Shown: positions 4,208-24,476 of the stretch, piece after piece
Layout of the letters: the number at the start of each line of letters is the position of its first letter
Numbering within the stretch: position 1 is the first letter of the stretch
Source: an uncultured Desulfobacteraceae bacterium
Lineage (GTDB): Bacteria; Desulfobacterota; DSM-4660; Desulfatiglandales; Desulfatiglandaceae
Direction of reading: 5' to 3'
NCBI GenBank assembly: GCA_964438065.1
Contig: CAYTJI010000001.1
Location: 1-24,476 of the forward strand
DNA: 24,476 nt
Notes under the pieces: model-generated
Databases searched by the model: none
What the model was told of the DNA's origin: nothing
The model's input: only the letters and a program-made list of their open reading frames with translations
Program-made: the position numbers and the translations under genes

Positions 4208-4219
4208 GGACCAGGATAT

Positions 4220-4724: not shown

Positions 4725-4964
4725 GAGACCTCTGAAAACTGACCGGTTTTGCGCCAAATCAAATCAAAAAGCCTGCACTGATAAGAAGGGGAAGGCCAAA
4801 TCACGCCATCGCGTGAATAACCGACTCAATATATTGAATATTTTGAAGATTATAAGTTGATCCCAACCTGTCTGGGTGCCGGCCTGTCCCGTCCGGACGG
4901 CAGACAGGCAACGCATAGGCAGGCGCCGTGTTGGTGCAAAAAGAGGTCGCTTTTCAAAGGTCTC
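4725..4964. mobile_element. MITE-like element A (240 bp) between mraZ and rsmH
   Basis: Terminal inverted repeats GAGACCTCTGAAAACTGACC (4725-4744) and GGTCGCTTTTCAAAGGTCTC (4945-4964) match at 17/20 and extend inward (TTTTGCGCCAA / TTGGTGCAAAA). There is no coding capacity and no clear target duplication. Confidence 0.7.
4867..4923. repeat. Doubly nested CCTG...CAGG hairpins inside element A
   Basis: The outer unit is CCTGTCTG...TAGGCAGG (4867-4923). The inner unit is CCTGTCCCGTCCGGACGGCAGACAGG (4883-4908), with a perfect 12-nt palindrome CCGTCCGGACGG at 4889-4900. Confidence 0.7.
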
Positions 4965-5029
4965 ATGCGGCAGTTCCATCAGGAGAGGCAATCCAAATCC
5001 ATTTTCAAGGTATCGCAGGGATTTCAGGT

Positions 5030-5971
5030 TTGGGATACCCACACCAGCCAGTTCTCGTCCATGAAGTCGTCCGGTATCTGTGCCACAAGGCAGATGGCAC
5101 ATACGTGGACGGCACGGTTGGACCGGGCGGGCACAGCGAGGCGATTGGTCGGAGTCTCACCGCAACGGGGCGTTTGATATGCCTGGACCGGGATCCGGAA
5201 GCTATCCGAATGGCCGGGGAAAGGCTGACCTTTCTTAAAAATCGTGTCAAACTGGTCCAGGCAAACTTTGCAGACCTGGATGACGTTCTTTCATCGCTGG
5301 GAATCCAGTCGGTTGACGGTGTTCTGCTGGACCTGGGTCTGTCTTCCTGGCAAATCGAGCACTCGGGCAGGGGATTCAGCTTCAACAGAGACGAACATAT
5401 TGACATGAGGATGGATCCGAACGATGAAACGACGGCATATGAACTCGTCAATGCCCTTTCCCTACAGGACATTGAAAGGATCTTGAAAGAATATGGTGAA
5501 GAAAAAAGAGCGGGCCGAATCGCAAGGGCTGTTGTCCGGGCACGGGCCAAAAAGCCTCTTGAAACATCCTCTCAGCTGGCAGATGTGATTCGGTCGGCAT
5601 TCCCATCGTCGCATCGATTCACAGCCAGGCATCCTGCGACAAGAACATTCCAGGCCTTCAGGATAGCCGTTAACAGGGAATTACAGAATATCGATATATT
5701 TCTGGATAAGATTCCATCTCTGATTTCAGCAGGAGGAAGGCTGGTCGTCATATCCTATCACTCACTTGAAGACAGGCGCTTCAAACAGACCATGATGCAC
5801 TGGGAAAGGACCTGCACCTGCCCACCGGATTTCCCCCGGTGCGTCTGCGGGAAGGTTCCTCTTTTCAGACGTCTGTTCAGGAAAGGGATTAAGGCGGGTA
5901 CCGAGGAAGTGCACAACAACCCCAGGGCGCGCAGCGCGGTTCTGAGAGCTGCGGAAAGGATTCAGCCATGA
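5030..5971 (+). CDS. rsmH: 16S rRNA (cytosine1402-N4)-methyltransferase RsmH (MraW), about 313 aa
   Basis: HQPVLVHEV, DGTVGPGGHS, LLDLGLSSWQ, RGFSF, DMRMD, HPATRTFQAFRIAVN, SYHSLEDR and NPRARSAVLR. The likely start is TTG 5030; the ORF-track start at 4928 lies inside element A. Confidence 0.95.
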   Translation: MGYPHQPVLVHEVVRYLCHKADGTYVDGTVGPGGHSEAIGRSLTATGRLICLDRDPEAIRMAGERLTFLKNRVKLVQANFADLDDVLSSLGIQSVDGVLLDLGLSSWQIEHSGRGFSFNRDEHIDMRMDPNDETTAYELVNALSLQDIERILKEYGEEKRAGRIARAVVRARAKKPLETSSQLADVIRSAFPSSHRFTARHPATRTFQAFRIAVNRELQNIDIFLDKIPSLISAGGRLVVISYHSLEDRRFKQTMMHWERTCTCPPDFPRCVCGKVPLFRRLFRKGIKAGTEEVHNNPRARSAVLRAAERIQP

Positions 5972-6333
5972 CACGACCGGAAAAAATTTCGAGGATGGTG
6001 GGATCAAGGAATACGAACTCGGGCGTCCGCATAAAAAACAGCCGGGTCAGGAAAAGAAAGACCGGCATGACCCGAAAACAGGTCCTCCTGGCCGGTCTGA
6101 TCCTGTTACTTTTCATGGGCAGCGGAATCAGTTATGTATGGTCCAATTTCGAGATGACTCAGAGAGGATACGACATCAGTGAACTCAGAACTGAAGAGAT
6201 GCGACTGCTGGACAAAAACCGCAAATTGAGACTGGAACTGGCAATTCTGGAGTCCCCGCAGAATCTTGAGACCCTGGCACACAAACTGGGGCTTCGACAA
6301 CCAACCCCTGATCAGATTATTGTCCTGAAATGA
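5968..6333 (+). CDS. ftsL: Cell division protein FtsL
   Basis: It sits between rsmH and ftsI with ATGA overlaps at both ends. It has a basic N-terminus, a single TM helix (VLLAGLILLLFMGSGISYVW), a coiled coil, and ends ESPQNLETLAHKLGLRQP. Confidence 0.82.
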   Translation: MTRPEKISRMVGSRNTNSGVRIKNSRVRKRKTGMTRKQVLLAGLILLLFMGSGISYVWSNFEMTQRGYDISELRTEEMRLLDKNRKLRLELAILESPQNLETLAHKLGLRQPTPDQIIVLK

Positions 6334-8294
6334 AGGTCGGAGAAAAAAAACGGATTCGGTTCCGTATCTACCTGGTGGCCTTTTTTTTTCTACTGGCCTT
6401 GGGGACGGTCCTGGCCAGGGCGTATCAACTCCAGATACGGAAAAAGGATGCTCTGGACGCCATCGCGCGAAACGGTTATATCGGTACGGCGAAACTCCCT
6501 CCGGAACGGGGAACCATATATGACAGAAAGGGCCGTGAACTGGCACTGAGCGTGCGAGTAAAATCCGTATACGCCCATCCCAGACGGATCAAGAACAAGA
6601 GAAAAACAGCCCGGCGACTGGCCCGTATTCTGAAACAGAAACAGGGCAGACTTCTGCGCCTGTTGAGGAGCGACCGATCATTTGTATGGATCGCCAGGAA
6701 AATTCCTCCTGTTCAGGCACAAAAGGTCATGTCCGCCCGTCTGGAAGGCGTCAACATCGTCGCCGAGAGCCGACGCTACTATCCCGAGAAAGAAAGCGGG
6801 GCTCATCTGGTGGGCTTTGTCGGCGCCGACAATCAGGGGCTGGAAGGGCTTGAAAAAAAATTCGATTCGCTGCTGAGGGGCCCGCAGTGCACCCTCACCC
6901 TGATGCGGGATGCCTTGGGACGCCCGTTTTCGGTCAGCAACCGGACTCCTTCCGGCCACGGGATGTATGACATCATCCTTACGATCGATAAGGACATTCA
7001 ATGCAAGGCCCAGAAGGCATTACGCGCGACAGTCAGAAAGCTGAAAGCCAGGGCAGGCAACTGCCTGGTCGTGGCCCCTGACACCGGAGAGATCCTGGCC
7101 ATGGCGGTCGAGCCGGAATTCAATCCGAACGTCTTCTCGTCTTACAGGCCGGATCAGTGGAGAAACCGCGCTGTTACAGACTGTTTCGAGCCCGGGTCCA
7201 CCATCAAGCCGTTCCTCCTGGCCGCGTGCCTGGAAGAACATGTCCTCACCACCCGTACCACATTTGACTGTGAAGAAGGGGCATACCGGATCGGCACGCA
7301 TGTGATCCACGACACCAAGAAACACGGTGTCATGAACGTGGCGGAAATCATCGTTCATTCCAGCAATATCGGCGGGGTCAAAATGGGCCGGCGCCTCGGA
7401 TATGCAAAATTCTATGATTACCTGAAAAAATTCGGGTTCGGCAGCAGGCTGGGCAACGATTTCCTGGGAGAAAGGACCGGGTTCATCCGGTCTCCTTCAA
7501 AAACCCGGGAAATCGACCAGGCCACCGCATTTTTCGGCCAGGGAATCACCGGTACCTCCCTGCAGCTTGCCATGGCCATGGGGGCCATCGCAAACGGCGG
7601 CCGGTTGATGCGGCCTTTTGTGGTGAAAGCCGTTGTGGACGAATCCGGCCGAACGGTAAAAAGAACCCGGCCGCAGGTCATCCGAAGGGTGATATCTGCA
7701 AAAACGGCAGCCAGCGTCTCACGCGTGCTCGAAGGCGTTGTCAGCGATGAAGGCACGGGCGCGCCGGCAGCGATCGCCGGGTTCAGGGTCGCGGGAAAAA
7801 CCGGCACTTCCCAGAAAGTGGATCCCCGAACCAGGAGGTATTCCCGGACAAAGTACGTGGCCACTTTTGTCGGGTTCGTCCCGGCTCAGAAACCCAGGCT
7901 GGTCATCCTGGTCACGGTTGATGAACCGAAAGAGATTCATTACGGGGGACTGGTAGCCGGGCCCGTATTTAAAGATGTGGGGAAATGGACCTTGAATTAT
8001 CTCCGGGTCAATCCGGATGTCAGATCAGCCGGCAGGGACAAAAAGGCACTGAAATATGTGATGATCGGCAAATATGCACCGGCGCTGAGTGCATCCGCGC
8101 CAGAAAAGGTCACCAAAGGGAGCCTGCCGGATTTCAGGGGCCTGGGGATGAGGCAGGTCCTGAAAAAATGCAGGGCCCTCGGCCTGGATATACGCCTTGA
8201 AGGAACCGGCATTGCGGACCGTCAAAGGCCTTCGCCGGGGGTATCCCTCAAGAAAGTGCCGATAGTCAGGGTAAGTTTCAGCCCTCCCGGATAA
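6330..8294 (+). CDS. ftsI: Class B penicillin-binding protein FtsI (PBP3) with C-terminal PASTA-like domain
   Basis: N-terminal TM helix, RGTIYDRKG and GLEGLEKKFD. Catalytic motifs are SxxK (EPGSTIKP), SxN (SSNIG) and KTG (GKTGTSQK). The tail reads LPDFRGLGMRQV...QRPSPG. Confidence 0.95.
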   Translation: MKVGEKKRIRFRIYLVAFFFLLALGTVLARAYQLQIRKKDALDAIARNGYIGTAKLPPERGTIYDRKGRELALSVRVKSVYAHPRRIKNKRKTARRLARILKQKQGRLLRLLRSDRSFVWIARKIPPVQAQKVMSARLEGVNIVAESRRYYPEKESGAHLVGFVGADNQGLEGLEKKFDSLLRGPQCTLTLMRDALGRPFSVSNRTPSGHGMYDIILTIDKDIQCKAQKALRATVRKLKARAGNCLVVAPDTGEILAMAVEPEFNPNVFSSYRPDQWRNRAVTDCFEPGSTIKPFLLAACLEEHVLTTRTTFDCEEGAYRIGTHVIHDTKKHGVMNVAEIIVHSSNIGGVKMGRRLGYAKFYDYLKKFGFGSRLGNDFLGERTGFIRSPSKTREIDQATAFFGQGITGTSLQLAMAMGAIANGGRLMRPFVVKAVVDESGRTVKRTRPQVIRRVISAKTAASVSRVLEGVVSDEGTGAPAAIAGFRVAGKTGTSQKVDPRTRRYSRTKYVATFVGFVPAQKPRLVILVTVDEPKEIHYGGLVAGPVFKDVGKWTLNYLRVNPDVRSAGRDKKALKYVMIGKYAPALSASAPEKVTKGSLPDFRGLGMRQVLKKCRALGLDIRLEGTGIADRQRPSPGVSLKKVPIVRVSFSPPG

Positions 8295-8376
8295 TGCCGG
8301 CGGGAAATCCGGAAGCACGGAACACTGTGGATTACCAATCAACAAACGGATTCGCAGCCGAGATGGACACAAACAC

Positions 8377-9894
8377 ATGCGCCTGAAATCACTGCTCACC
8401 GGTATTTCGACCTCGGGCCCGGCCAACACGCCTGATCCGGAAATCAAAGGCCTGGCCTGTGATTCCCGGAAGGTTCGACCGGGATTTCTGTTTATCGCCC
8501 TGAAAGGGACATTACGGGACGGTCACGACTTTATTGAAGACGCCGTGCGAAACGGTGCCAGTGCAGTGGTGGGAGAATCATTTACAGGAACAGTCCCTGT
8601 TGCTGAGAATATCCCAACCTTTCAGGTCCCTGATTCCCGCGTTGCTCTGGCCCAACTGGCCTTGAATTTCTACGGACAGCCGTTCAGAAACATGAATCTG
8701 ATCGGGATTACCGGCACGAACGGGAAAACCACGACAAGCTACCTGCTGGAATCCATTCTGCTCACGGCCGGATCCAGACCCGGCGTTATCGGGACCATCA
8801 GTTATCGCGCACCCGGAATCACATGGCCCGCACCGCTAACGACTCCCGATTCCCTGGAGTTGATACGGATTCTTCGCAGCATGGCCGATACCGGGGTCTC
8901 CGACGTCGTCATGGAGGTCTCATCTCATGCGCTGGATCAGAAAAGGATCACGGGCTGCCCGTTCCGGACTGCGGTCTTCACCAATCTCTCCAGGGACCAC
9001 CTTGACTATCATGGCTCCATGTCGGCATATTTCGAGGCCAAAAGCAGGCTCTTCCGCGAACTCAGGTCCGAAGGAGACCGTAATGATACAAAGGCGGTGA
9101 TCAACGCGGATGATCCGTCAGCAGGAAAACTGGCCCGGCTCACTCCGGTCCCGGTCGTGACCTACGGCCTTGAGAGGGACTGTAATGTCCGGGCGGAACA
9201 GGTCGTGTCAGGCAAGTCCGGGGTGACCGCAAGGCTCATCGCGCCCGGCGGCCGGACAGAAGTCCGCTCGTCATTGATCGGCGGATTCAATATATACAAT
9301 ATACTTGCGGCTGCTGCCGCGGCCTTGTGTCTGGGCATATCCCTGGAAACCATCGCATACGGGGTCTCCCGCCTCCAAGGAGTGCCGGGCCGTCTGGAAC
9401 GGGTGCCGAACCGGCGGTCCCTGACAATTATCGTGGATTACGCCCACACACCGGACGCCCTGCTCAAGGCCCTGACTGCGCTCAGGCCGCTTGCAGGAGA
9501 AGGCCGGCTCATCACCGTGTTCGGTTGCGGTGGGGACCGGGACAGGGGCAAACGCCGGGAAATGGGACAAGTCGCCGCACAGCACAGTGACCTGGTGATT
9601 CTCACCTCCGACAACCCCCGAACCGAAGACCCGGAGTCGATCATCGCACAGATTGAACCGGGGATGCGGGATAAGGACATGGAAAAACTTCCGGGCCTTC
9701 CCGGCAGACGGTCGGCCGTTACAGGCTATTTCGTCGAACCGGACCGTGCCGAAGCGATTCAAAAGGCGGTTGAAGAAGCGGATCAGAAAGACATCATCCT
9801 GATCGCAGGAAAAGGTCACGAAGACTATCAGATCATCGGGACGCAAAAAAGGCATTTCGACGACCGCGAAGTGGCGGCAAAGGCCGCCTCGTGA
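8377..9894 (+). CDS. murE: UDP-MurNAc-L-Ala-D-Glu:meso-diaminopimelate ligase
   Basis: GITGTNGKTT, LTTPD, EVSSHALDQ, TNLSRDHLDYH, VDYAHTPD, FGCGGDRD, DNPR (meso-DAP specificity motif) and GKGHEDYQ. Confidence 0.96.
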   Translation: MRLKSLLTGISTSGPANTPDPEIKGLACDSRKVRPGFLFIALKGTLRDGHDFIEDAVRNGASAVVGESFTGTVPVAENIPTFQVPDSRVALAQLALNFYGQPFRNMNLIGITGTNGKTTTSYLLESILLTAGSRPGVIGTISYRAPGITWPAPLTTPDSLELIRILRSMADTGVSDVVMEVSSHALDQKRITGCPFRTAVFTNLSRDHLDYHGSMSAYFEAKSRLFRELRSEGDRNDTKAVINADDPSAGKLARLTPVPVVTYGLERDCNVRAEQVVSGKSGVTARLIAPGGRTEVRSSLIGGFNIYNILAAAAAALCLGISLETIAYGVSRLQGVPGRLERVPNRRSLTIIVDYAHTPDALLKALTALRPLAGEGRLITVFGCGGDRDRGKRREMGQVAAQHSDLVILTSDNPRTEDPESIIAQIEPGMRDKDMEKLPGLPGRRSAVTGYFVEPDRAEAIQKAVEEADQKDIILIAGKGHEDYQIIGTQKRHFDDREVAAKAAS

Positions 9895-9913
9895 AAATCC
9901 GCAAGACAGGGGG

Positions 9914-11332
9914 ATGCCGATGCCTGAGGCATGGGGGAACATCACGGTAGAGGAAATCCTGGCCCCGACCCGCGGAATCCTGCTTTCGGGAAATCTGCGG
10001 CAGGTCTTTTCCGGCCTGAACACCGATTCCAGACGCACGGCCTCCGGCGATCTTTTCATAGCGCTTATCGGGGATCGTTTCGACGGGCACAATTTCGCAC
10101 TGGATGCGATAAACCGGGGGGCAACGGGGATTGTCATACGGAAAGATCGCGCACAGGGACTCTCCCGTGTTAAGGGAGCGGCAGTCATCGCCGTCAAAGA
10201 CACCCTGAGAGCCCTGGGGGATCTGGCTGCATGGTGGCGACGCCGGCACAGGGTGAGACTTGTCGCCGTGACGGGCAGCGCCGGAAAGACGACGACGAAG
10301 GAAATGATCTCGCGAATCCTCGAAATTGAGGGCCGGACACTCGCAAGCGAGGGAAACTTCAACAATCTGATCGGCCTGCCGCTGACTCTGCTGCGTCTGG
10401 AAACCGGACATGAAAGCGCTGTGCTGGAAATGGGGATGAACCGGCCGGGGGAAATCGCACGACTGACCGAAATCGCAGATCCGGATGTGGGCGTGATTAC
10501 AAACGTGGGCATGGCGCACCTGGAAGGTCTCAAAGACATCAAGGGCGTTGCCCGGGCCAAGACTGAAATGGTGGAAAGGGTGTCTCCGGAAAGCCGGATT
10601 CTTCTGAACGGAGATGACAAACTCCTGATGGAGGCGGCTTCCCGGTTCGGAAGGGCTGTGACGACGTTCGGATTTGAGGAAAACAATGATATCCGTTGCA
10701 CGAACGTCCGGGATACGGGCCTGGCCGGGGTCTCTTGTTCCGTAACATACCGCGGGAAATCCATAGACATCCGGCTGCGTGTTCCGGGTCATCAGAACGT
10801 GTCCAATGCCCTGGCAGCGACTGCGGCTGCGCTTTTGCTGGACACATCCCCTGATCACATTGTCAAAGGCCTGGAGGCCTTCAGAGGCGTTCCGGGCCGG
10901 TTTACACCGATTGCGCTGCCCGGTGGCATCACGCTGGTAGACGACACCTACAATGCCAATCCTTCATCCCTGAAGGCGGCCCTGAAAGCGGTGGCCGCAC
11001 TCAGAAACAGCGGCGGAAGAATACTCATTGCGCTTGGAGAGATGATGGAACTCGGCGATGCGGCGGTCCCGGCCCATCTGGAGGCCGGGCGCATGGTGGC
11101 GGAAACCGCGGCGGCCTACCTTGTGGCCATGGGCGAACACGCGCCGGAAATGATAAAAGGCGCTCTGGAATCCGGGATGGGCCCAAACGGTGCAGAAACT
11201 GCAGGCACGCACGAAGAAATGGTCGACCGGCTGATCAGCAGGATCAAACCGGGGGACCTGATCCTTGTCAAGGGATCCCGAATGATGGATCTTGGCCGGG
11301 TTGTCGATGACATCCGGGCGCGTGTACCGTGA
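9914..11332 (+). CDS. murF: UDP-MurNAc-tripeptide:D-Ala-D-Ala ligase (start may be 9920)
   Basis: DSR, GDRFDGH, VTGSAGKTTTK, NFNNLIGLPLT, EMGMNRPGEI, DDTYNANPSS, GEMMELG and KGSR. Confidence 0.95.
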   Translation: MPMPEAWGNITVEEILAPTRGILLSGNLRQVFSGLNTDSRRTASGDLFIALIGDRFDGHNFALDAINRGATGIVIRKDRAQGLSRVKGAAVIAVKDTLRALGDLAAWWRRRHRVRLVAVTGSAGKTTTKEMISRILEIEGRTLASEGNFNNLIGLPLTLLRLETGHESAVLEMGMNRPGEIARLTEIADPDVGVITNVGMAHLEGLKDIKGVARAKTEMVERVSPESRILLNGDDKLLMEAASRFGRAVTTFGFEENNDIRCTNVRDTGLAGVSCSVTYRGKSIDIRLRVPGHQNVSNALAATAAALLLDTSPDHIVKGLEAFRGVPGRFTPIALPGGITLVDDTYNANPSSLKAALKAVAALRNSGGRILIALGEMMELGDAAVPAHLEAGRMVAETAAAYLVAMGEHAPEMIKGALESGMGPNGAETAGTHEEMVDRLISRIKPGDLILVKGSRMMDLGRVVDDIRARVP

Positions 11333-11389
11333 ACAGTCACGAGGGGAAATTTTACAAAGATCTCACAGCATCAAAAGGCAAACAGCCCC

Positions 11390-12469: not shown

Positions 12470-12477
12470 CAGGTCCA

Positions 12478-14950: not shown

Positions 14951-14972
14951 CACCCAAAACCCGCATAAATTG

Positions 14973-15011: not shown

Positions 15012-15049
15012 TTGGATTTCTGGGCTTGCAGGATTTAGGTGAAAGGCAA

Positions 15050-16162
15050 ATGAATCATACGGCCGGAACCTTTCGGGCGATCATAGCGGGCGGCGGTACA
15101 GGCGGTCACCTTTTTCCCGGAATTGCCGTGGCCAGAGAAATTGAAAAGCGGTTTGATCACGCCGAGGTCCTTTTTGTGACTGGCCTGCGAAAAATGGAAT
15201 CGGAAATTCTGTCCCGCTATGGATACCATACCGTTTCCATCCGGGTGGAGGGGATAAAAGGCCGGGGCTGGAAAAAGGGGCTGAAGGTAATTTCCGGACT
15301 TCCCGGCAGCTTTCTGCAGTCAGTCTCTTTGATCAAGGCCTTTTCACCGGTCTTTGTTCTCGGCGTTGGAGGCTATGCTTCGGGTCCGGTGTGCCTGGCC
15401 GCCAGGATGATGGGGGTTCCGACAGCGATCCATGAACAAAACGCCGTTCCGGGTCTTGCCAACCGTCTGCTGTCCCGGTTTGTGGACTGTGTGTTCATTT
15501 CGTTCCCGGAAAGCCGGCCCTGGTTGAAAGGCCGCCGGCATGTCCTGAGCGGAACGCCGGTACGGGAAGAGCTTTTTTCCGGTATCCCCGCAAAGAAACC
15601 GGACTCATCGCGGTTTACCGTCCTGGTGGTGGGTGGCAGCCAGGGCGCCATGGCCGTTAACAGGGCCTTTGCCGAGGCCCTGGAGATCCTGGAATCGGAA
15701 GGCAGACATCCCCATGCGATCCACCAGACAGGAGAGACGGATTTTGCGAGGGTTCAGGAAGACTACCGCAAACGCGGCATTCGGGCGGAGCTTCACCCCT
15801 TTATCCGGGATATGGCCGCGGCATATCACCGCGCGGATCTCGTTGTCGGCCGGGCGGGGGCATCCACGATCTTCGAGCTCGCGGCACTGGGAAAACCCTC
15901 TGTTCTGATCCCCTACCCGTTCGCAACGCATGGGCATCAGGAAATGAATGCCCGCTGTCTGGTTCAGGCGGGGGCCGCGGAAATGATCCGGCAGGAAGAA
16001 CTGACCGGCGAGTGCCTGGCAAAGGTCCTGACCGAATTCATGAACAACCCGGACAGGCTGAAAACCATGGGGATCCGGGCCCTGACGATCGGCCGAAAAG
16101 ACGCGGCAGAGGTCATTGTGGATCATCTGCTGGAAACAGCGCTCGCAAAAAAACGGACCTGA
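15050..16162 (+). CDS. murG: Undecaprenyl-PP-MurNAc-pentapeptide GlcNAc transferase, 370 aa
   Basis: GGGTGGHLFPG, GVGGYASGP, HEQN, GGSQGA, RAGAST and HQEMNA. ATG 15050 follows AAGG. Confidence 0.96.
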   Translation: MNHTAGTFRAIIAGGGTGGHLFPGIAVAREIEKRFDHAEVLFVTGLRKMESEILSRYGYHTVSIRVEGIKGRGWKKGLKVISGLPGSFLQSVSLIKAFSPVFVLGVGGYASGPVCLAARMMGVPTAIHEQNAVPGLANRLLSRFVDCVFISFPESRPWLKGRRHVLSGTPVREELFSGIPAKKPDSSRFTVLVVGGSQGAMAVNRAFAEALEILESEGRHPHAIHQTGETDFARVQEDYRKRGIRAELHPFIRDMAAAYHRADLVVGRAGASTIFELAALGKPSVLIPYPFATHGHQEMNARCLVQAGAAEMIRQEELTGECLAKVLTEFMNNPDRLKTMGIRALTIGRKDAAEVIVDHLLETALAKKRT

Positions 16163-16173
16163 ACACAGCGGAT

Positions 16174-16339
16174 AACATTTTACCAAAAACCTGCAAGCGT
16201 CGAGTTTGCCTTGCACCTGCCTGCTGCAGGCAGGTGCAAGGCGGCAAGGGCGCAGACGTACGACGATACTTCAAGTCCTTGCCAACGCCGTCCCGCCTCC
16301 AGGCGGGATAAAATCGGCACTCCCGGAGGGTAAACTATT
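16174..16339. mobile_element. MITE-like element B (about 166 bp) between murG and murC, with nested palindromes
   Basis: Imperfect ends AACATTTTACC / GGTAAACTATT (9/11). It has the core CAAGGCG...CAACGCCG seen in the other elements, a perfect 17+1+17 palindrome at 16208-16242 and an 8-bp-arm hairpin TCCCGCCT-CC-AGGCGGGA at 16291-16308. Confidence 0.5.
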
Positions 16340-16396
16340 TTCAAAAATCCGGTCTAAACCGGACATTTCGGGATGTACCGCTGTTGATGAGAAAAA

Positions 16397-17794
16397 ATGA
16401 AAACACTCGGAAAGACAAAACACGCTCATTTTATCGGTATCGGCGGCATCGGGATGAGCGGCATCGCCGAACTTCTGCTCAACCTGGGCTACTCCGTCAG
16501 CGGTTCGGACCTGACGGAAACCGCGGTTACCCGGCGCCTGGCGGCCCTGGGGGGCCGAATCCATATCGGGCATGAAAGACGGAACGTGGAAGGGGCCGAT
16601 GTCGTGGTCTATTCCTCGGCCGTGAGGCCGGACAACCCGGAGATCCTGGAGGCCGGAGAGCGAAGCATCCCGGTGATCCCCAGGGCGGAAATGCTGGCGG
16701 AGCTGATGCGGCTCAAGTATGGGATTGCCGTGGCCGGCGCACACGGCAAGACCACAACCACTTCCATGATCGCCTCCATACTGACCCGCGGACACCTGGA
16801 CCCGACCGTGGTAATCGGGGGGCGGCTGAATATCTGGGGCGGATCAAACGCCAAACCGGGCCGGGGAGACATCCTGCTCGCAGAGGCCGATGAAAGCGAC
16901 GGGTCTTTTCTTGCCCTGTCTCCCGCAATCGTCGTGGTTACCAATATTGACCGGGAGCACATGGATCATTACGGCAATATGGATGCGATCCGGAAAACGT
17001 TTGTCGATTTCATCAACAAGATTCCGTTTTACGGAACCGCCATGCTCTGCCTCGACAATGAAGAAATTCAGGGAATTATTCCCCGACTCCGCAAAAAATA
17101 TGTCACTTACGGCCTGACCTCCCAGGCCGATCTCAAGGCCAGGGACCTGCAGAAAGAGGCGATCGGAACAAGCTTTGAGGTAATTTTTCACAACCGGAGC
17201 CTGGGCCGCATCACCGTGGAGGTCCCCGGAGACCACAATGTCTTGAATGCGCTGGCGGCTATTGCGGTCAGTCTCGAACTCGAGATGGATATCGCCGTCA
17301 TACGTGACGGGCTGAAGACCCTGGGGGGGCTCGAAAGGCGTTTTGAGGTCAAGGGCCGGAAGCAAGATATCGTTGTCATGGACGATTACGGACATCATCC
17401 GACGGAGATCATGGCCACGCTGAAGACCGCCAGGGAATGCTGGCCGGAAAGGCGGATCATTGTCGTTTTCCAGCCGCACCGGTACACCCGGACAAAAGAA
17501 CTGTTCGATCGCTTTGTCATCAGCTTTAATGAAGCGGACCTGCTGATCATTACCCCCATTTATCCCGCCGGAGAAAAAGAAATCCATGGCGTGAGCGCTG
17601 AATGGCTGGCCAGGGGAATCAAAGAGCACGGACACAGGGAAGTGCTTACCTGCCGGGAATCGGACGAAATTCTCCGGGCACTCAAATCACATGTCAGGCC
17701 CGGAGATCTTGTCATCACGCTCGGGGCGGGCAATATCGGCAGCGTCGGGAAAAAATTTCTGGATGAACTGGGCAAGGAGGGCAGCACACCCTGA
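16397..17794 (+). CDS. murC: UDP-MurNAc:L-alanine ligase
   Basis: GIGGIGMSG, GAHGKTTTTSM, EADESDGSF, DDYGHHPTEI and FQPHRYTRT. Confidence 0.97.
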   Translation: MKTLGKTKHAHFIGIGGIGMSGIAELLLNLGYSVSGSDLTETAVTRRLAALGGRIHIGHERRNVEGADVVVYSSAVRPDNPEILEAGERSIPVIPRAEMLAELMRLKYGIAVAGAHGKTTTTSMIASILTRGHLDPTVVIGGRLNIWGGSNAKPGRGDILLAEADESDGSFLALSPAIVVVTNIDREHMDHYGNMDAIRKTFVDFINKIPFYGTAMLCLDNEEIQGIIPRLRKKYVTYGLTSQADLKARDLQKEAIGTSFEVIFHNRSLGRITVEVPGDHNVLNALAAIAVSLELEMDIAVIRDGLKTLGGLERRFEVKGRKQDIVVMDDYGHHPTEIMATLKTARECWPERRIIVVFQPHRYTRTKELFDRFVISFNEADLLIITPIYPAGEKEIHGVSAEWLARGIKEHGHREVLTCRESDEILRALKSHVRPGDLVITLGAGNIGSVGKKFLDELGKEGSTP

Positions 17795-17829
17795 AAGGAT
17801 TCGGGGCGATCATCCCCGTGTGAACCGGC

Positions 17830-18759
17830 ATGAACAAAAATCAGAGGAACAGACTGGCAGCCATGACAGGCTACAAAACCATCTTTGACTGCCCCATGGC
17901 ACGCTATACAACCTTTCGTGTCGGGGGCACGGCCGAAGCCGTGTATCACGCTGATGATCTCGAAGAACTCAGTCAGATCATTCGATACCTGAACCGTGAA
18001 GGGATCCCCTGTTTCGTCATGGGCCGCGGAAGCAATCTCCTGATACGGGACAGTGGTATCAGCGGACTGATCATCCAACTGAAAGGCGCGTTGGCCACGA
18101 TCGAGCGGGAACACCCGGAGGATCCTACGCTTTTGCTGGGAGCCGGACTTTCCCTGGCGGATCTTCTGTCCTACTGCCGGCGTGCAGGTCTGAGCGGTCT
18201 GGAGTTCCTGGCCGGCATTCCCTGTACCGTGGGTGGCGCTGCAGCCATGAACGCAGGCGCCTTTGGTGAAGAATTCTGTCCCCGGATTCTGGAAATCCAG
18301 TGGCTCACCGCGCAGGGGGACCTCCGCGTCACGGAGCGCGCGCAACTCCGGTTTTCGTACAGAACCCTGGAAATGGAGAAAGACTCGGTAATTGTCCGCG
18401 TTCGGGTGCAGCTGCGTCATGATTCTGAAAAAACCGTCGCGCATCGTATCACTCAGTGTCTCAGGGAACGGAGACTTCGTCAGCCGCTCGAATACCCAAG
18501 CGCCGGCAGCGTATTTAAAAACCCTCCCGGCGACTTTGCTGGGAGACTGATTGAAGCGGCCGGTTTGAAAGGGAAAAAGATCGGCGGAGCCATGATCTCG
18601 GAAAAGCACGCCAACTTTATCATCAATACCGGCGGCGCAAAGGCGGAAGATATTCTGGGCCTGATGGATCTGGCTGAATCCAGAGTGAAAGAAGATACCG
18701 GTATTGAACTCGAACCGGAAGTCAGGATTCTGGGAAACGGCTTTACTGACAGCCGGTAA
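17830..18759 (+). CDS. murB: UDP-N-acetylenolpyruvoylglucosamine reductase
   Basis: YTTFRVGG, GSNLL, GGAAAMNAGA, PSAGSVFKNP, HANFIIN and LEPEV. Confidence 0.96.
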   Translation: MNKNQRNRLAAMTGYKTIFDCPMARYTTFRVGGTAEAVYHADDLEELSQIIRYLNREGIPCFVMGRGSNLLIRDSGISGLIIQLKGALATIEREHPEDPTLLLGAGLSLADLLSYCRRAGLSGLEFLAGIPCTVGGAAAMNAGAFGEEFCPRILEIQWLTAQGDLRVTERAQLRFSYRTLEMEKDSVIVRVRVQLRHDSEKTVAHRITQCLRERRLRQPLEYPSAGSVFKNPPGDFAGRLIEAAGLKGKKIGGAMISEKHANFIINTGGAKAEDILGLMDLAESRVKEDTGIELEPEVRILGNGFTDSR

Positions 18760-18794
18760 CGTTTCCGCTCACAAGGATATGAATCCCGGATAAA

Positions 18795-19622
18795 ATGAAT
18801 AAACGATCCGTGCTCAACAAACAGTCGGTAAAGAAAAGGAAAAAGAGGAAGGCCGGAAGACGCCCCCGCGGTTCTGTTCGGATGCGCAATGTCATACCCC
18901 TGCTCTTAAAGATCTCCGGATCGTGTGCGGTCGTCACAGGAATCAGCCTTTCGTTGATTTTTCTTTATCATTACGTGCTGACAACACCTTTGTTAAAACT
19001 GAAACAGGTGGAAATCGCTGGTGTGAATGAACAGATCCGGAATGAATTGATGGCCATGTGTGACTTGAGTCCGGAGCAGAATCTGCTGTTCCTCAATCTG
19101 AACGTACTGAAAAAAAGGCTCGAACAACATCCGTGGATCAAATCCGTTCAACTCAGAAGGCGTTTTCCCCACACCCTCTGCATTCGGGCGGAAAAACACA
19201 GACCCCTGGCGCTCGTGATTCGAAACGGCATCTACTACATAGACAGGGAATGTGAGATCTTCAAAAAAGTCACGCCGTCGGACGACATTGATTTCCCGGT
19301 AATCACCGGACTTTCCAGCCGGGCACAGAAGGCCCGGGAGCAGCTTCACCGGGCGGTCCGGGTCATCAATGTTCTGGAATCCCAGGATAAACCCTGGTCA
19401 TTGAAAAACCTTTCAGAGATACACATCCAGGAAGAGAGTTTATCCCTGTATTTCACCCATATTCCTGCGGCAATCATTGTGCAGTGCAACAGGATGTCAG
19501 ACAAAATGGCTGACTTGAAAAAGCTGGCCAGACACCTGCGCAGAACGGGTCGGATTCAACGTGTGACAGCCATTAACCTGAATTACGTTGACGGTGCAGT
19601 CGTCTCTTTCAGAAACGGATGA
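18795..19622 (+). CDS. ftsQ: Cell division protein FtsQ/DivIB
   Basis: A basic cytoplasmic N-terminus, one TM helix and a POTRA-like segment (HPWIKSVQLRRRFPHTL). It lies directly before ftsA. Confidence 0.88.
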   Translation: MNKRSVLNKQSVKKRKKRKAGRRPRGSVRMRNVIPLLLKISGSCAVVTGISLSLIFLYHYVLTTPLLKLKQVEIAGVNEQIRNELMAMCDLSPEQNLLFLNLNVLKKRLEQHPWIKSVQLRRRFPHTLCIRAEKHRPLALVIRNGIYYIDRECEIFKKVTPSDDIDFPVITGLSSRAQKAREQLHRAVRVINVLESQDKPWSLKNLSEIHIQEESLSLYFTHIPAAIIVQCNRMSDKMADLKKLARHLRRTGRIQRVTAINLNYVDGAVVSFRNG

Positions 19623-19661
19623 CCGCCCGTGTAACGGCGCCTGAAGCAGGAGCAGTCAAAG

Positions 19662-20885
19662 ATGTCCGGAGAAATCATAGTCGGATTGGATATCGGAACG
19701 ACCAAGATCTGTGCCGTTGTGGGAGAGGTGCGTCCCGACGGAATCGAAATTATCGGCATGGGCAGTCACCCTTCTGAAGGCCTCAGAAAAGGGGTGGTTA
19801 TCAATATCGAACAGACCGTAAACTCAATCAAAGAGGCCGTGGAAGAGGCCGAAACCATGGCCGGCTGTGAAATTTCATCGGTCTACGCGGGCATTGCAGG
19901 GGGCCACATCAAGGGGTTCAACAGCCAGGGCGTTATCCCCCTTAAAGAAAAAGAAGTGACCCGAAAGGACATCGAGCGTGTGATTGAAGCGGCCAGCGCG
20001 GTCGCCATCCCCATGGACCGGGAGGTCATCCATACTCTGGTGCAGGAATTCATTGTTGATGACCAGGACGGGATCATGGATCCCCTCGGCATGTCCGGCG
20101 TACGACTGGAGGCCAAGGTCCATATGGTGGCCGGCGCGGTCACGTCCGCGCAGAACATCATTAAATGCGCGAACCGGGCGGGGCTGGATGTGTGCAACAT
20201 CGTCCTCGAATCCCTGGCGTCGAGTGACGCCACACTGTCACAGGAAGAACGGAATCTCGGTGCGGCGCTCATCGATTTTGGTGGGGGAACGACCGATATG
20301 GCCATTTTCTCGGGTGGCAGCATCAAACACACCTCGGTGCTTGCCCTGGGAGGAGACAACCTGACATATGATCTGGCCATCGGCCTGAGAACACCGAAAC
20401 TGGAGGCTGAAAAAATCAAGATCAAATACGGATGCGCCTTTTCCTCGCTGATCGGGAAAGACGATACCATCGAGGTCCCCGGTGTGGGAGGACGAAAATC
20501 CAAGGTTCTCTCCCGTCAGGTGCTCGGGGAGATCCTGGAGCCCCGAGTGGAAGAGATATTCACCCTCATCCACGATGAACTGGTCCGTTCCGGTCACGAA
20601 GAAACCATCACATCAGGCGTCATCATTACAGGCGGTTCATCGGAGCTTGCCGGCGTCACGGAAATGGTTGAACAGATCTTCAACGCGCCGGCCCGGATCG
20701 GATACCCGCAGGGGATCACCGGGCTTGTAGAGGTGGTCAACAAACCCATGTACGCAACAGCTGTCGGACTGGTCATCTATGGCGCAAAATCCGGAAAAAA
20801 GGCAAAGAAATTCAGGATCAGGGACAGCAACATTTTTAACCGTGTGATGACCATGATGAAAAGATGGTTCAGGGAAGTCGTTTAA
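19662..20885 (+). CDS. ftsA: Cell division protein FtsA
   Basis: GLDIGTTKIC, GMSGVRLE, IDFGGGTTD, ITGGSS and a C-terminal amphipathic helix (NIFNRVMTMMKRWF). Confidence 0.97.
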   Translation: MSGEIIVGLDIGTTKICAVVGEVRPDGIEIIGMGSHPSEGLRKGVVINIEQTVNSIKEAVEEAETMAGCEISSVYAGIAGGHIKGFNSQGVIPLKEKEVTRKDIERVIEAASAVAIPMDREVIHTLVQEFIVDDQDGIMDPLGMSGVRLEAKVHMVAGAVTSAQNIIKCANRAGLDVCNIVLESLASSDATLSQEERNLGAALIDFGGGTTDMAIFSGGSIKHTSVLALGGDNLTYDLAIGLRTPKLEAEKIKIKYGCAFSSLIGKDDTIEVPGVGGRKSKVLSRQVLGEILEPRVEEIFTLIHDELVRSGHEETITSGVIITGGSSELAGVTEMVEQIFNAPARIGYPQGITGLVEVVNKPMYATAVGLVIYGAKSGKKAKKFRIRDSNIFNRVMTMMKRWFREVV

Positions 20886-20913
20886 CATTTCAGCCCAGCA
20901 AAGGAGGGAAGTC

Positions 20914-22218
20914 ATGAAATTCGAGATTGTGGATGAAAAAAAGATATACAACAACAAGACACGGATCAAGGTCGTGGGTGTCGGCGGCGGCGGCGGAAAC
21001 GCCGTCAACAACATGATCGACACAAAGCTGGCGGGCGTGGACTTTATCGTCGCCAATACGGATGCGCAGGATCTGGACAGATCCCTGTGCTCTGACCGGA
21101 TCCAGCTGGGGCCCTCCGTAACCATGGGGCTCGGCGCCGGCGCGGACCCGGAAATCGGCAGGGCGTCTGCCGAAGAAAGTATCGAGGAAATCAGAAATAT
21201 TGTGGACGGCTCGGATATGGTGTTCATTACCGCCGGCATGGGAGGCGGGACAGGCACCGGCGCATCCCCTGTGATCGCACGGCAGTGCAGGGAAAGCGGC
21301 GCACTGACGGTCGCCGTGGTCACAAAGCCTTTCAGTTTCGAAGGGGATAAGCGGATGGAAAAGGCCATGAAAGGCATCGATAGCCTCCGGGATGAGGTGG
21401 ACAGCCTGATCATTATCCCCAATGAGCGACTCAAGGCCCTCAGCGGAAAAGCCACCACCTTCAAGGATCTGATCGCCCGCGCGGACGAAGTACTGCTCCA
21501 TGCCGTCAAGGGCATTTCCGACCTCATCATGAGCAGCGGTTTCATCAACCTGGATTTTGCAGACGTCAAGAAGGTGATGGAGAAAATGGGAAGCGCCATT
21601 ATGGGGATGGGAAACGCCAGCGGGGAAAACAGGGCACTGGAAGCCGCGCAGATGGCGATCAACAGTCCCCTTCTGGAAGACATTTCCATTGACAGTGCCA
21701 AAGGCCTGCTGATGAACATCACCGGACCATCCGACATGACCATGGAAGAGATCGACGCGGCCTCCAATTACATCAAAGGGGAAGTTAACCAGAACGCCGA
21801 AATCTTCTGGGGAGTCGTATTCGATGACAGCAACAGTAACGAAATCAAGGTGACCGTGATTGCCACAGGGATAAACGGAAACGGGGACGGTAGAAGACTG
21901 GAATCGAAAGGCCTTGATCCCGAACAGAACCGGAAATCCGGAAATTACAGCAATGTGGTCAATATCGGCGAAAAGATCAGGGACCTGAGCCCGGAAGAAG
22001 CCGAAGCAAACTGGATAATCAAAAAAAAGGGAGGCGAGGTCATTCCGGAGTATCTTGAAATCCCTACCTTTCAGAGAAAAGGCTCAAATGGCGGCATTGT
22101 CCATGACAGTCCCGAGCCCCCGATCGGAAAGAAAAAAAGAGGGCTTTTCGGCCGGCTGAATATCGGCTTCAAGGACAATCTGGATTATCCGACTTTTCTC
22201 AGATTGAAAACGGACTAG
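20914..22218 (+). CDS. ftsZ: Cell division protein FtsZ with extended C-terminal tail, 434 aa
   Basis: GVGGGGGN, NTDAQ, the tubulin signature GMGGGTGTG, INLDFADV and terminal LDYPTFLR. Confidence 0.98.
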   Translation: MKFEIVDEKKIYNNKTRIKVVGVGGGGGNAVNNMIDTKLAGVDFIVANTDAQDLDRSLCSDRIQLGPSVTMGLGAGADPEIGRASAEESIEEIRNIVDGSDMVFITAGMGGGTGTGASPVIARQCRESGALTVAVVTKPFSFEGDKRMEKAMKGIDSLRDEVDSLIIIPNERLKALSGKATTFKDLIARADEVLLHAVKGISDLIMSSGFINLDFADVKKVMEKMGSAIMGMGNASGENRALEAAQMAINSPLLEDISIDSAKGLLMNITGPSDMTMEEIDAASNYIKGEVNQNAEIFWGVVFDDSNSNEIKVTVIATGINGNGDGRRLESKGLDPEQNRKSGNYSNVVNIGEKIRDLSPEEAEANWIIKKKGGEVIPEYLEIPTFQRKGSNGGIVHDSPEPPIGKKKRGLFGRLNIGFKDNLDYPTFLRLKTD

Positions 22219-22229
22219 CGGTTCACCGG

Positions 22230-22264
22230 CTCTGTTGAGGCATGGCCTCCAGAGATTAATTTGT
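22230..22264 (+). terminator. Possible intrinsic terminator of the dcw operon
   Basis: CTCTG-TT-GAGGC-ATG-GCCTC-CAGAG (10 bp with a 2-nt bulge, 22230-22254) begins 12 nt after the ftsZ stop. The tail ATTAATTTGT is weak. Confidence 0.35.
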
Positions 22265-22334
22265 CCATCCACTGAATTCAGGGCTCGGACGAGTTTCCAA
22301 CCCGGAAATGCGAAATTTTTTACGAAATCCAGGG

Positions 22335-22518
22335 AGTGTCCATCCATAAATGAGGATTTTTATTCAAGATCAAGGCGTGCGAAAAAAATAACCGCCCCGG
22401 TGAAATGGAGACACAACGGCATTTCACGGGACAGGCAGTCATCGTAGTTGATATTCCGAGGATTATTTTTTTGCGCAACGCGGATATTGGGCAAAACGGC
22501 CATTCATGCATGGAAACT
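22335..22518. mobile_element. MITE-like element C (184 bp) between ftsZ and the radical SAM gene
   Basis: Ends AGTGTCCATCCATAAATG / CATTCATGCATGGAAACT match at 15/18. Internal arms GCGTGCGAAAAAAATAACC / GGATTATTTTTTTGCGCAACGC are present. The interior is homologous to element A. Confidence 0.7.
22383..22437 (+). repeat. 55-nt direct repeat, copy 1
   Basis: AAAAAATAACCGCCCCGGTGAAATGGAGACACAACGGCATTTCACGGGACAGGCA is identical to 24422-24476. It contains the hairpin GTGAAATG...CATTTCAC. Confidence 0.95.
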
Positions 22519-22564
22519 GCTATGTGCAAGCCCTGGACATACATATTGAAAGGCGCTTAGCGGC

Positions 22565-24325
22565 GTGTCAAGTGATATCATCTCCCTTTACCGTTCCCGG
22601 CTGGCCCGGGAAAAGGGCACTGTTGTAAAAGATCGAGGGGGAAAACTGGCGGTGGCGCTGGCCTACCCCAATACGTACCGCCTCGGCATGTCGAACCTGG
22701 GATACCAGTATGTCTATCATCTCCTTAACAGACGGCCGGATGTGGTCGCAGAGCGCGTTTTTCTGCCTGAATCACAGGAAATGGCCCTTTATCTTCAGTC
22801 AGGGAAGCCCCTGCTTTCTCTTGAATCACAGGCGCCGGTCCACGATTTCGATGTTGTCGCGTTTTCTCTCTCCTTTGAAAATGACTACCTCCATGTCCTG
22901 AAAATCCTGGAATTGGCAAAAATTCCTCTTTTGGCGGAAAAGCGCTCCAAAAGCTGTCCTTATGTGATGGCCGGCGGCGTTACGACCTTTATGAACCCGG
23001 AGCCCCTGGCCCCTTTCATGGACTTCTTCCTTCCGGGGGAGGCGGAAGCCGTTCTGGACGAATTTCTGGACCATTTCCTGTCATATGGGAACGTCCATCG
23101 CTCCAGAAGCGATATTCTCCGGGACCTCTGTAGAAATATGAGCAGCGTGTATGTGCCCTCCTTCTACCATACGGAATACCACAGGGACGGCACCATCCGG
23201 TCCTTTCTGCCTACACGGGACCATGTTCCGGAAAGGATAAAAATTGCCCGTTCAACGGCTGAACAGATCCCTGCCTCCGGCATCACAACCCCGGACACCG
23301 AGTTCGGAGGCAAGGTCCTGATTGAACTCGGCAGAGGATGTACCCGTTCCTGCCGTTTCTGCGCGGCGGGATACGTGTACCGACCGCCCAGAATACCGGA
23401 TGAAACCACAACCCGTCTGGCGATTGAAGAGGCACTGCAAATTTCCCGCAATCTGGGTCTGATTGCCCCCGCCATTTCGGATATCCCCGGTATTGAAGAC
23501 CTGGCATCCCTGATCCTGGATAATGGCGGACGCTTTTCGGTCTCTTCCCTGAGGGCGGACAGCCTGACCCCGCGTCTCCTGGATCACTTGCACCGGGCCG
23601 GTCAGCGGACCATCACCATTGCGCCCGAGGCCGGCTCGGAGAGGCTCAGAAGAGTCATCAACAAACATCTGACGCGCAGCCAGATTGCCGATGCCGCAAA
23701 GCGACTGGCCTGCACGCACGCCTTTGCCGTCCGGCTGTATTTCCTTGTCGGCCTTCCGACCGAAACCCGTCAGGACATCCGGGAAATACTCGAACTGGTC
23801 AAGACGGTCAAACATCACATGATCAGGGAATCGGCGCCGCGGGGGACCATCGGGCAGATCCGGCTGAGTGTGAACTGTTTTGTACCGAAACCCTTCACGC
23901 CGTTTCAGTGGGTCCCTCTGGAGCAGATATCTTCTCTCAAGGAAAAACAGAAATGGCTGAAAAAAAACCTTGGCAGGGAAGGCGGAGTGCGGATAAACTT
24001 TGACGTCCCCAAATGGGCCTATGTCCAGGCCCTGCTTTCCATGGGGGACAGACGGGTATCTGCCATGCTCCTCCGGGCGCACGAGCAGAACGGGAATTGG
24101 ACGCAGGCCCTTCGCTTTTCCGACGTGAATCCGGATTTCTTTGTCTATCGACCCAGGGGAACGGATGAAATACTTCCCTGGGACTTTGTGGATCATGGAA
24201 TCTCAAAAAAACATCTGCTCAGGGAATATGCCCTCGCCATCCGGGGGGAACAGTCCGACATCTGCCATGTGGGCGAATGCTACCGTTGCGGCGTGTGTGT
24301 CCCGGCGAAACCGGACGGCCGCTGA
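22565..24325 (+). CDS. Uncharacterised radical SAM protein with N-terminal B12-binding-like domain (TIGR03960-like), 586 aa
   Basis: CxxxCxxC (CTRSCRFC, 23339-23362), YPNTYRLGMSNLG, FSLSFENDY, TIAPEAGSERLRRVINK, FVPKPFTPFQW and a C-terminal CHVGECYRCGVC. The family name is from recalled motifs, not a search. Confidence 0.85.
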   Translation: MSSDIISLYRSRLAREKGTVVKDRGGKLAVALAYPNTYRLGMSNLGYQYVYHLLNRRPDVVAERVFLPESQEMALYLQSGKPLLSLESQAPVHDFDVVAFSLSFENDYLHVLKILELAKIPLLAEKRSKSCPYVMAGGVTTFMNPEPLAPFMDFFLPGEAEAVLDEFLDHFLSYGNVHRSRSDILRDLCRNMSSVYVPSFYHTEYHRDGTIRSFLPTRDHVPERIKIARSTAEQIPASGITTPDTEFGGKVLIELGRGCTRSCRFCAAGYVYRPPRIPDETTTRLAIEEALQISRNLGLIAPAISDIPGIEDLASLILDNGGRFSVSSLRADSLTPRLLDHLHRAGQRTITIAPEAGSERLRRVINKHLTRSQIADAAKRLACTHAFAVRLYFLVGLPTETRQDIREILELVKTVKHHMIRESAPRGTIGQIRLSVNCFVPKPFTPFQWVPLEQISSLKEKQKWLKKNLGREGGVRINFDVPKWAYVQALLSMGDRRVSAMLLRAHEQNGNWTQALRFSDVNPDFFVYRPRGTDEILPWDFVDHGISKKHLLREYALAIRGEQSDICHVGECYRCGVCVPAKPDGR

Positions 24326-24351
24326 TAGGACATCCCGGCAGTTACCGGACA

Positions 24352-24476
24352 GAGTCCTTTGAACAACGACCGTTTTGTGCCGAATCAAGTCGAAGATCCC
24401 GGACCTTGAGCGGGGCGCGCGAAAAAATAACCGCCCCGGTGAAATGGAGACACAACGGCATTTCACGGGACAGGCA
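24352..24476. mobile_element. MITE-like element D, left part (runs off the window edge)
   Basis: It starts GAGTCCTTTGAACAACGACCGTTTTGTGCCGAATCAA, which aligns with the left end of element A (GAGACCTCTGAAAACTGACCGGTTTTGCGCCAAATCAA). It continues into the interior shared with element C. Confidence 0.65.
24422..24476 (+). repeat. 55-nt direct repeat, copy 2 (may extend beyond the window)
   Basis: Identical to 22383-22437. The preceding GGCGCGCG versus GGCGTGCGA extends the similarity. Confidence 0.95.

Follow-up and report, generated by a model that had tools for sequence, protein, structure and literature searches.

Decayed copies of an abundant miniature inverted-repeat transposable element family, and of a second repeat family, probably occupy gene junctions of a Desulfobacterales dcw cluster

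The window, which is the whole 24,476-nt stretch of DNA analysed here (contig CAYTJI010000001.1 of an uncultured Desulfobacteraceae bacterium), contains a complete dcw cluster on the + strand, in the order mraZ, rsmH, ftsL, ftsI, murE, murF, mraY, murD, ftsW, murG, murC, murB, ftsQ, ftsA and ftsZ, followed by one B12-binding radical SAM gene. Four elements, A to D, are located at these genes: A in the mraZ–rsmH spacer, B in the murG–murC spacer, C between ftsZ and the radical SAM gene, and D behind the latter (Table 1). An earlier, sequence-only reading of the window had described the four as one family of non-autonomous inverted-repeat elements. Our analysis indicates that A, C and D are very probably decayed copies of an abundant family of MITEs (miniature inverted-repeat transposable elements), and that B belongs to a second, distantly related and still commoner family.

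All profiles used in this study were built solely from copies located outside the window. In its commonest form, the intact element is 141 nt in size (GTGTCCRTCCATAAATGAGGA-TTTTTGTTCAAGATCAAGGCGTGCGAAAAAAATAACCACAGGCATATATTTGATATTCCGAGGATTATTTTTTAAGCAKAACGCAGATATTGGGCAAAAA-GGCCATTTATGGATGGACAC); intact copies are 139–143 nt long and consist of 21-nt inverted-repeat tips around one conserved hairpin-forming body (TTTTGTTCAAGATCAAGGCG ... CAACGCAGAGATTGGGCAAAAA). The window copies are 180–240 nt in length; the open reading frames (ORFs) that overlap them are chance frames only, and the elements have no coding capacity. The profiles recovered all four elements at the places first proposed, with B slightly larger (16172–16351), and the motifs shared among the copies turned out to be real family-conserved positions. 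The proposal of a single family held for A, C and D, which are united by the profiles, whereas B is separate and only distantly related.

The family occurs in many contexts, both in the same organism and across the Desulfobacterales. Scanning of genome contigs with the core identified nine loci, eight of them in Desulfobacterales or 'delta proteobacterium' metagenome-assembled genomes (MAGs) and the ninth labelled Thiotrichaceae; a shorter core was found in at least 120 metagenome contigs. The family core and the A-type tip were absent from viral contigs, and the plasmid collection gave no match to the canonical element or to B. Mobility is recorded in the flanks. Among 58 non-redundant complete copies of the canonical, GTGTCC-tip type, 35 have one perfect 6-bp flanking direct repeat, compared to 3.8 expected when left and right flanks were paired across different copies; at least five of the six positions match in 45 copies. 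The consensus of the 6-bp repeat is TANNTA; non-palindromic cases, such as TGGTTT, GAGTTA and GAGGTA, show that the flanking repeats arose by duplication of the target and do not belong to the inverted repeat. These duplications and contexts support the idea of a multi-copy non-autonomous MITE.

The copies that share the core carry about 20 types of tips. The main ones are GTGTCC...; GAGACCTTTGAAAAATG... (A-type, 142 nt); GGGTACCTTGAAAAATC...; GTTTCCATCCGAAAAC...; GAGGCTATCTCAAAAAT... and GATTCTGTTGATTTATG.... The length of the duplication follows the tip: it is 6 bp for both GTGTCC and GTTTCC, 5 bp for GAGACC (four of seven copies) and 4 bp for GGGTACC (five of seven). In a comparison of the left tip with the reverse complement of the right one over 20 types, 14.6 of 24 positions agreed within the copy (16–20 for the top ten types), and 10.6 ± 2.0 between types. 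Between the subfamily consensuses, the body is 68–90% identical (excluding the 19-mer used for fishing), and the tips are 45–68% identical. The use of the core 19-mer for fishing explains part of the conservation of the core (ascertainment), but not the variety of tips found on one body. The sequence-only reading had regarded the ends as complementary within every complete copy, as if by compensatory change. By direct reading, the tips are indeed complementary at 17 of 20 positions in A and at 15 of 18 in C; however, D, which is complete in an independent assembly, has ends of two types. The variation is more aptly seen as a set of discrete subfamilies; each of them has a particular inverted-repeat tip and duplication length, and presumably different transposases serve them.

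Element A is of the GAGACC-tip subfamily, here called A-type. Positions 1–103 of the A-type profile align with 4725–4867 (E=1.1e-6) and positions 104–142 with 4925–4964 (E=0.009); the two matches are collinear, and the alignment places additional extra sequence in the left arm. The right boundary is defined by contigs of metagenome run X1, which part into differing flanks at 4964/4965. Summed depths mix organisms and are not copy numbers, but single-copy sequence is ruled out by them: in X1, where the organism is present at ∼30x and the flanks of A at ∼29, the right arm reached 700–1,100x (25–40-fold excess) and the left arm ∼60x. Several separate X1 contigs at 26–29x, which is the depth of the organism itself, contain 4882–4964. 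The hairpin nested in A has a summed X1 depth of 7,000–8,700, ∼10 times that of A's own arms; it is an independent repeat, far commoner than A itself.

Element C matches the canonical profile at E=5.6e-34 and three other subfamily profiles (GGGTA, GTTTC and A-type) at 1.6e-10 to 5e-23. The matches cover 22336–22518, and the depth is back to baseline past 22519; on the left side there is one sharp break at 22335/22336 in hundreds of contigs from four unrelated metagenomes, with variable flanks. The summed depth of the left part (22335–22395) is 2,000–73,000 in vent, marine-sediment, salt-lake and wetland metagenomes. Most copies elsewhere omit about 50 nt of the centre of C (∼22394–22447), having AGGCATAT in place. 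In five runs from five studies with detectable organism, C is present and no empty-site joints were seen. Just upstream of C, the segment 22262–22334 shows 3–4-fold excess depth in X1; by eye, ∼22291–22334 resembles the left arm of the GTTTCC type (GTTTCCAACCCGGAAATGCGAAATTTTTTACGAAATCCAGGG), though the GTTTC profile gives no match there. C may have landed inside an older family member.

Element D is cut by the end of the window, but it is complete in L001, an independently assembled contig 99.9% identical to the window that continues through D; there it extends from 11788 to ∼11996 and ends with ...CCATTTATGGATGGATAC. The canonical profile matches D in L001 over positions 39–141 (E=4.6e-16), whereas the left tip (24352–24392) is matched weakly by positions 1–42 of the A-type profile (E=0.08). 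Judged from these matches, D is one hybrid, with the left arm of A-type and the body and right arm of C-type, including the 35-nt hairpin. Owing to the differing types, the two ends of D do not form an inverted repeat. Side by side, the window and L001 show 11 differences, 3 of which (16272, 24452 and 24461) fall in the elements; these account for ∼4% of the length compared.

The last 55 nt of the window (24422–24476), which are part of D, are identical to a stretch of C, and the identity stops at the final base of the window; the corresponding 55 nt of D in L001 deviate from C at two positions (equivalent to 24452 and 24461 of the window). The D repeat is probably where the contig broke, and the exact identity may have come from gene conversion or from the assembler. 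Could the resemblance as a whole be due to chance, or to a contig that ends in a repeat? The coincidence of the window end with the end of the identity, and the two differences in L001, would fit such an artefact, but the independent assembly traverses D as a complete element, the profile E-values go down to 1e-34, and hundreds of copies are present in other samples. We give this explanation practically no weight; the one feature that assembly could account for is that the last 55 bases are exactly identical.

Different from A, C and D, element B gave no match to the four A/C subfamily profiles in nhmmer searches, and its pairwise alignment to these types is at z∼0 against shuffles. One B-type profile, made from the copies in L120 and L097 and two copies in L132, matches it at E=6.6e-45. 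The L120 copy is 91% identical to B and contains the same two nested hairpins; the L097 copy is one short form without hairpins. Canonical B-type copies extend ∼45 nt to the right past 16347. The summed depth of B is 60,000 in X1, 861,000 in X2 and 20,000 in X5, with flanks at 30 in X1 and 7 in X5; since the flanks of the window organism reach only 0–11 in X2, other organisms of that sample, far more abundant than this one, must carry very many copies. The short form, GAGTTTGCCGAAGATGCAAGGCG ... CAACACAGCAGATTCGGCAAAATCGG, parallels GATTTTTGTTCAAGATCAAGGCG ... CAACGCAGAGATTGGGCAAAAAG, and aligns with two other subfamilies at z=9.4 and 7.2, with none of 500 shuffles equalling the score and reverse-complement controls at z∼0. 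The homology first suggested for B thus exceeds shuffled controls for the short B-type copy and not for B of the window itself. By these comparisons, B is a member of a distinct family of extreme abundance, with distant homology to the A/C body, the link being transitive via the short form only.

Small GC-rich hairpins (CCTG...CAGG, CCCG...CGGG) are nested in A, B and C, and they look like a second tier of mobile or expanding hairpins. Modules like that of C are found at the same internal site (between AACCRC and AGGCA) in copies of two different subfamilies in L005 and in L120. As a separate observation, two canonical MITEs (L013 7276–7569 and L108 563–856) carry one identical loop insertion of ∼295 nt (TTCAGACCTCGTTATTCG...CACACGAGGTCCGGG), a further element lodged in this part of the loop.

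Another explanation is that the repeats, or at least B and the nested modules, spread as structure-specific single-stranded DNA hairpins whose body is recognised by RAYT/REP-like or IS200/IS605 HUH enzymes. The better conservation of the body than of the tips, the many tip types with little common sequence but preserved complementarity, the recurrence of small modules at the same internal site across subfamilies, the abundance of hairpin 4868–4924 and of B, far above that of the A- and C-type arms, and the lack of clear inverted-repeat ends and duplication in B would all suit such spread. However, regular 4–6-bp duplications that track the tip type are the signature of a staggered DDE cut, and HUH enzymes leave none; moreover, the GAGACC tip is a known IS5-family end, and no RAYT or TnpA gene was seen adjoining any copy. 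We consider this explanation improbable. Both the target duplications and the genomic context spoke against readings as integron attC or as IS200/605-type elements, which were dropped.

The sequence-only reading had offered, as its alternative, that the folds are kept as structured RNA. In this case, the host would maintain the hairpins as modules for the processing, stabilisation or attenuation of dcw mRNA segments, with their ends under compensatory evolution at the RNA level. The predicted folds of A (−91 kcal/mol, z=−5.5 vs shuffles) and B (−80.7 kcal/mol, z=−6.1) are strong, all four window copies are oriented with the operon, the + strand folds better in most family copies, and the tips vary by type yet are complementary within the copy. 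Nevertheless, the folds of C and D are marginal at best (z=−2.4 and −1.5), and four of four copies in the same orientation are expected by chance with p=1/8. Across the family, orientation relative to the flanking long ORFs, analysed for 142 copies, is unbiased (co-directional, 17 forward and 21 reverse; 10 convergent; 10 divergent). The window has no Rfam match at the gathering threshold, and nothing relevant was matched by canonical, A-type or other copies even at E≤1; no intrinsic-terminator-like site was found in A–D on the + strand, and neither IHF consensus nor promoter was detected. Relatives lack these elements at the same junctions, and the target-site duplications demonstrate transposition.

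One further candidate sign of RNA structure, the excess of G-T over A-C pairs in the tips (96 vs 42), was rejected: the related copies are redundant, and the excess lies in arms derived from a common ancestor, so it is not independent evidence for RNA-level selection. In the variable centres it is absent (63 vs 67). A dedicated host RNA role is unlikely, and host-kept RNA modules as the explanation of these elements are very unlikely; incidental effects of the hairpins on the dcw transcript are conceivable.

For the A-type elements, the tips point to a candidate partner. The IS5-like ends that the sequence-only reading had proposed (as IS1106-like) were substantiated, in that the end published for ISNme1 has the same sequence as the GAGACCTTTG(C)AAAA tip. 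The terminal inverted repeat (TIR) of ISNme1, an IS5-family element, is GAGACCTTTGCAAAA, and similar ends are present on ISPg1 and on MITEs of Porphyromonas gingivalis (PMC4596501, Table 2). A-type copies in L093, L099, L008 and L005 carry exactly this 15-mer as their right tip; the tips of A in the window match it at 12 and 13 of 15 positions, the comparison being with one published 15-mer. ISPg1/IS1126 duplicates 5 bp. From the tips, we infer that an IS5-family transposase similar to those of ISNme1 and ISPg1 would act in trans on the A-type elements. As first noted, the window itself has no transposase gene (by ORFs and Pfam). The search for a partner covered tip-only matches, inverted tip pairs 0.6–4 kb apart and generic inverted repeats, and yielded MITE pairs and noise; one 2.6-kb tip pair in L013 was rejected as an autonomous element, since it comprises two separate MITEs, one with an element nested in its loop.

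Taken together, these observations are most consistent with non-coding elements that move in a cut-and-paste manner through transposases whose genes lie elsewhere in the genome. On insertion, 4, 5 or 6 bp of target are duplicated, the number following the type of tip. The elements would have landed in short spacers of the dcw cluster and after the radical SAM gene, leaving the genes unbroken, and then decayed: duplications were presumably lost, tips mutated, and small hairpin modules gained, while D would have come from recombination between elements of two subfamilies. With mutated tips and no duplications, A, C and D look like old, immobile copies. The window copies are probably passengers co-transcribed with the dcw operon, and would affect its mRNA, if at all, incidentally.

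Several findings weigh against this interpretation. None of the four window copies has kept a target-site duplication, and for B neither clear inverted-repeat ends nor a duplication was found. A transposase with matching ends was found neither in the window nor in ∼770 kb of contigs examined; mobilisation in trans and the IS5-family assignment are read solely from the tips. The + strand folds better than the − strand, by 9.6 kcal/mol, in 86 of 93 copies, which could point to a structure specific to one strand. Finally, the body is conserved above the tips, which is the reverse of the usual pattern of MITEs, whose ends are conserved while the interior drifts.

This last point would be accommodated by a stronger version of the preferred reading, which we put forward tentatively and hold to be possible but on balance doubtful. 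The MITE would be modular: a hairpin body of ∼100 nt, under selection at the level of the element, would repeatedly gain 21-nt tips that fit different transposases. The body might serve as scaffold for a cruciform or for synapsis, or offer a host factor the binding site needed for efficient mobilisation; changing tips would explain the footprints of 4, 5 and 6 bp. Recombination within the conserved body would swap tips, with D as a natural hybrid caught mid-swap, and the body would also be the landing pad for the second tier of tiny hairpin elements. If true, the rule for conserved and drifting parts of MITEs would be reversed here.

Junctions of the cluster were compared in relatives (L132–L134; ∼68–69% protein identity for the radical SAM gene); the collections contained none closer. 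The mraZ–rsmH spacer is 357 bp in the window (to the TTG start at 5030) and 12 bp in L134; the murG–murC spacer is 234 bp, compared to 76 bp in L132 and 38 bp in L133; the ftsZ–radical SAM spacer is 346 bp, compared to 33 bp in L132 and 55 bp in L133. The adjacency of ftsZ and the radical SAM gene is kept in the relatives. In L131, three copies of an unrelated MITE of ∼300 nt are located at murG–murC, ftsQ–ftsA and ftsZ–radical SAM (Table 1), and members of the present family lie further downstream; gene callers turned the ∼300-nt copies into small ORFs. The dcw junctions have thus been struck repeatedly and independently, which fits spacers as the sole places in the cluster that tolerate insertion. 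In L134, one histidine-kinase-like gene (HisKA/HATPase_c, 7795–8748) lies between murF and mraY of the dcw cluster.

Table 1. Positions of the elements, their nested hairpins and the adjoining genes in the window, and of the unrelated MITE copies in contig L131
Feature	Position	Strand	Remarks
mraZ, upstream of A	4181–4672	+	Pfam MraZ, E=4.8e-28
Element A, decayed GAGACC-tip (A-type) MITE	4725–4964	+	240 nt, compared to 142 nt intact
Hairpin nested in A	4868–4924	+	CCTGTCTG...CAGACAGG; 57 nt, exactly between profile positions 103 and 104
rsmH (mraW), likely TTG start at 5030	5030–5971	+	Pfam Methyltransf_5, E=2.8e-108
murG, upstream of B	15026–16162	+	Pfam Glyco_transf_28 N- and C-terminal domains
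Element B, B-type repeat copy	16172–16351	+	Raised depth; nested hairpins at 16208–16242 and 16291–16308
murC, downstream of B	16397–17794	+	Pfam Mur ligase domains
ftsZ, upstream of C	20914–22218	+	Pfam Tubulin and FtsZ_C
Element C, GTGTCC-tip (canonical) MITE	22335–22519	+	Located by profile and depth; diverged right tip, nested hairpin
35-nt hairpin in the loop of C	22396–22430	+	CCCGGTGAAATGG...CATTTCACGGG; same module present in D
B12-binding radical SAM gene, between C and D	22565–24325	+	Pfam Radical_SAM_N2 and Radical_SAM
Element D, truncated by the window end	24352–24476	+	Starts GAGTCC...; left arm GAGTCCTTTGAAC..., A-type
Unrelated ∼300-nt MITE, three copies (contig L131)	3210–3520, 6750–7050, 9590–9850		Outer ends GTAACAGTTTAGC, inner inverted repeat GGTCTCTTTTGAAAAGTCCAC

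The longest frame of rsmH opens at GTG 4928, within element A. The N-terminus LGYPHQPVLVHEV lines up with the start of RsmH from a relative, which sets the start at TTG 5030; by this homology, element A does not overlap rsmH. On its 5' side, the dcw cluster is preceded by one gene for an AcrB/CusA-type pump and one for a metallo-beta-lactamase-fold protein; a tRNA scan of the window found none. The nearest proteins elsewhere, with identities of at most 73%, belong to MAGs of Desulfobacterales and 'Deltaproteobacteria', and the metagenome runs with the locus are from hydrothermal vents and marine sediments.

The family appears to be undescribed and without a name: in the literature that was searched we found no paper with its core sequence, and none that pairs MITEs with Desulfobacterales. 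The genome paper of Desulfobacterium autotrophicum remarked on an unusual repeat load, the repeats themselves not being described. In sediment and vent metagenomes in which these bacteria occur, the family is one of the most abundant short repeats; it breaks assemblies, as the window ending within a copy illustrates, and it enlarges intergenic regions, those of an essential operon included. Its recognition should aid assembly and annotation of MAGs, and help to avoid mistaking the hairpins for regulatory RNAs or terminators. For the dcw operon the message is modest, namely that its gene junctions can accommodate large inserted hairpins, and that such hits have recurred there in different lineages. 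The elements are selfish DNA of fairly ordinary kind but of unusual modular build, and offer a natural system in which to ask why a MITE would keep its body but vary in its ends and insertion footprints.

Among known repeats, the Correia elements of Neisseria (CREE/NEMIS) are also hairpin MITEs of 100–160 nt with end subtypes, intergenic location and an AT-rich target, and they are often co-transcribed within operons, as is probably the case here. However, Correia elements duplicate TA, contain an IHF site and promoter elements, and give transcripts that are cut by RNase III, whereas the present family duplicates 4–6 bp (TANNTA for the main type), has no detected IHF consensus, promoter or terminator, and shares no sequence similarity with them. 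Like the present elements, ERIC/IRU sequences are imperfect palindromes (∼127 nt) in transcribed spacers, including those within operons; they have longer variants through insertions at fixed internal sites, and are spread across a bacterial order. Compared to ERIC, whose mobility and footprints are poorly defined and whose sequence is not similar, the present family has clear target duplications, discrete tip subfamilies and far higher abundance in metagenomes.

The nested hairpins of A, B and C are similar to the REP/BIME repeats of RAYT systems, in that both are short, very abundant and clustered palindromes. REP/BIME lack the inverted-repeat tips and target duplications of the main 141-nt elements, which in turn are not duplication-free, RAYT-linked palindromes of 20–40 nt; no RAYT gene was seen here. 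The closest parallel is with ATR of Neisseria meningitidis and BrickBuilt/MITEPgRS of P. gingivalis, which are also non-coding, multi-copy and intergenic, and whose TIR, GAGACCTTTGCA(AAA), is identical to the A-type tip described here (PMC4596501). For them, too, an IS5-family transposase acting in trans is the presumed means of mobilisation. Past the 12–15-nt tip there is no similarity, the host here is Desulfobacterales, and the partner insertion sequence proposed here is deduced from the tips. Different from ATR and BrickBuilt, the present family has one conserved hairpin body of 100 nt that is common to subfamilies with very different tips.

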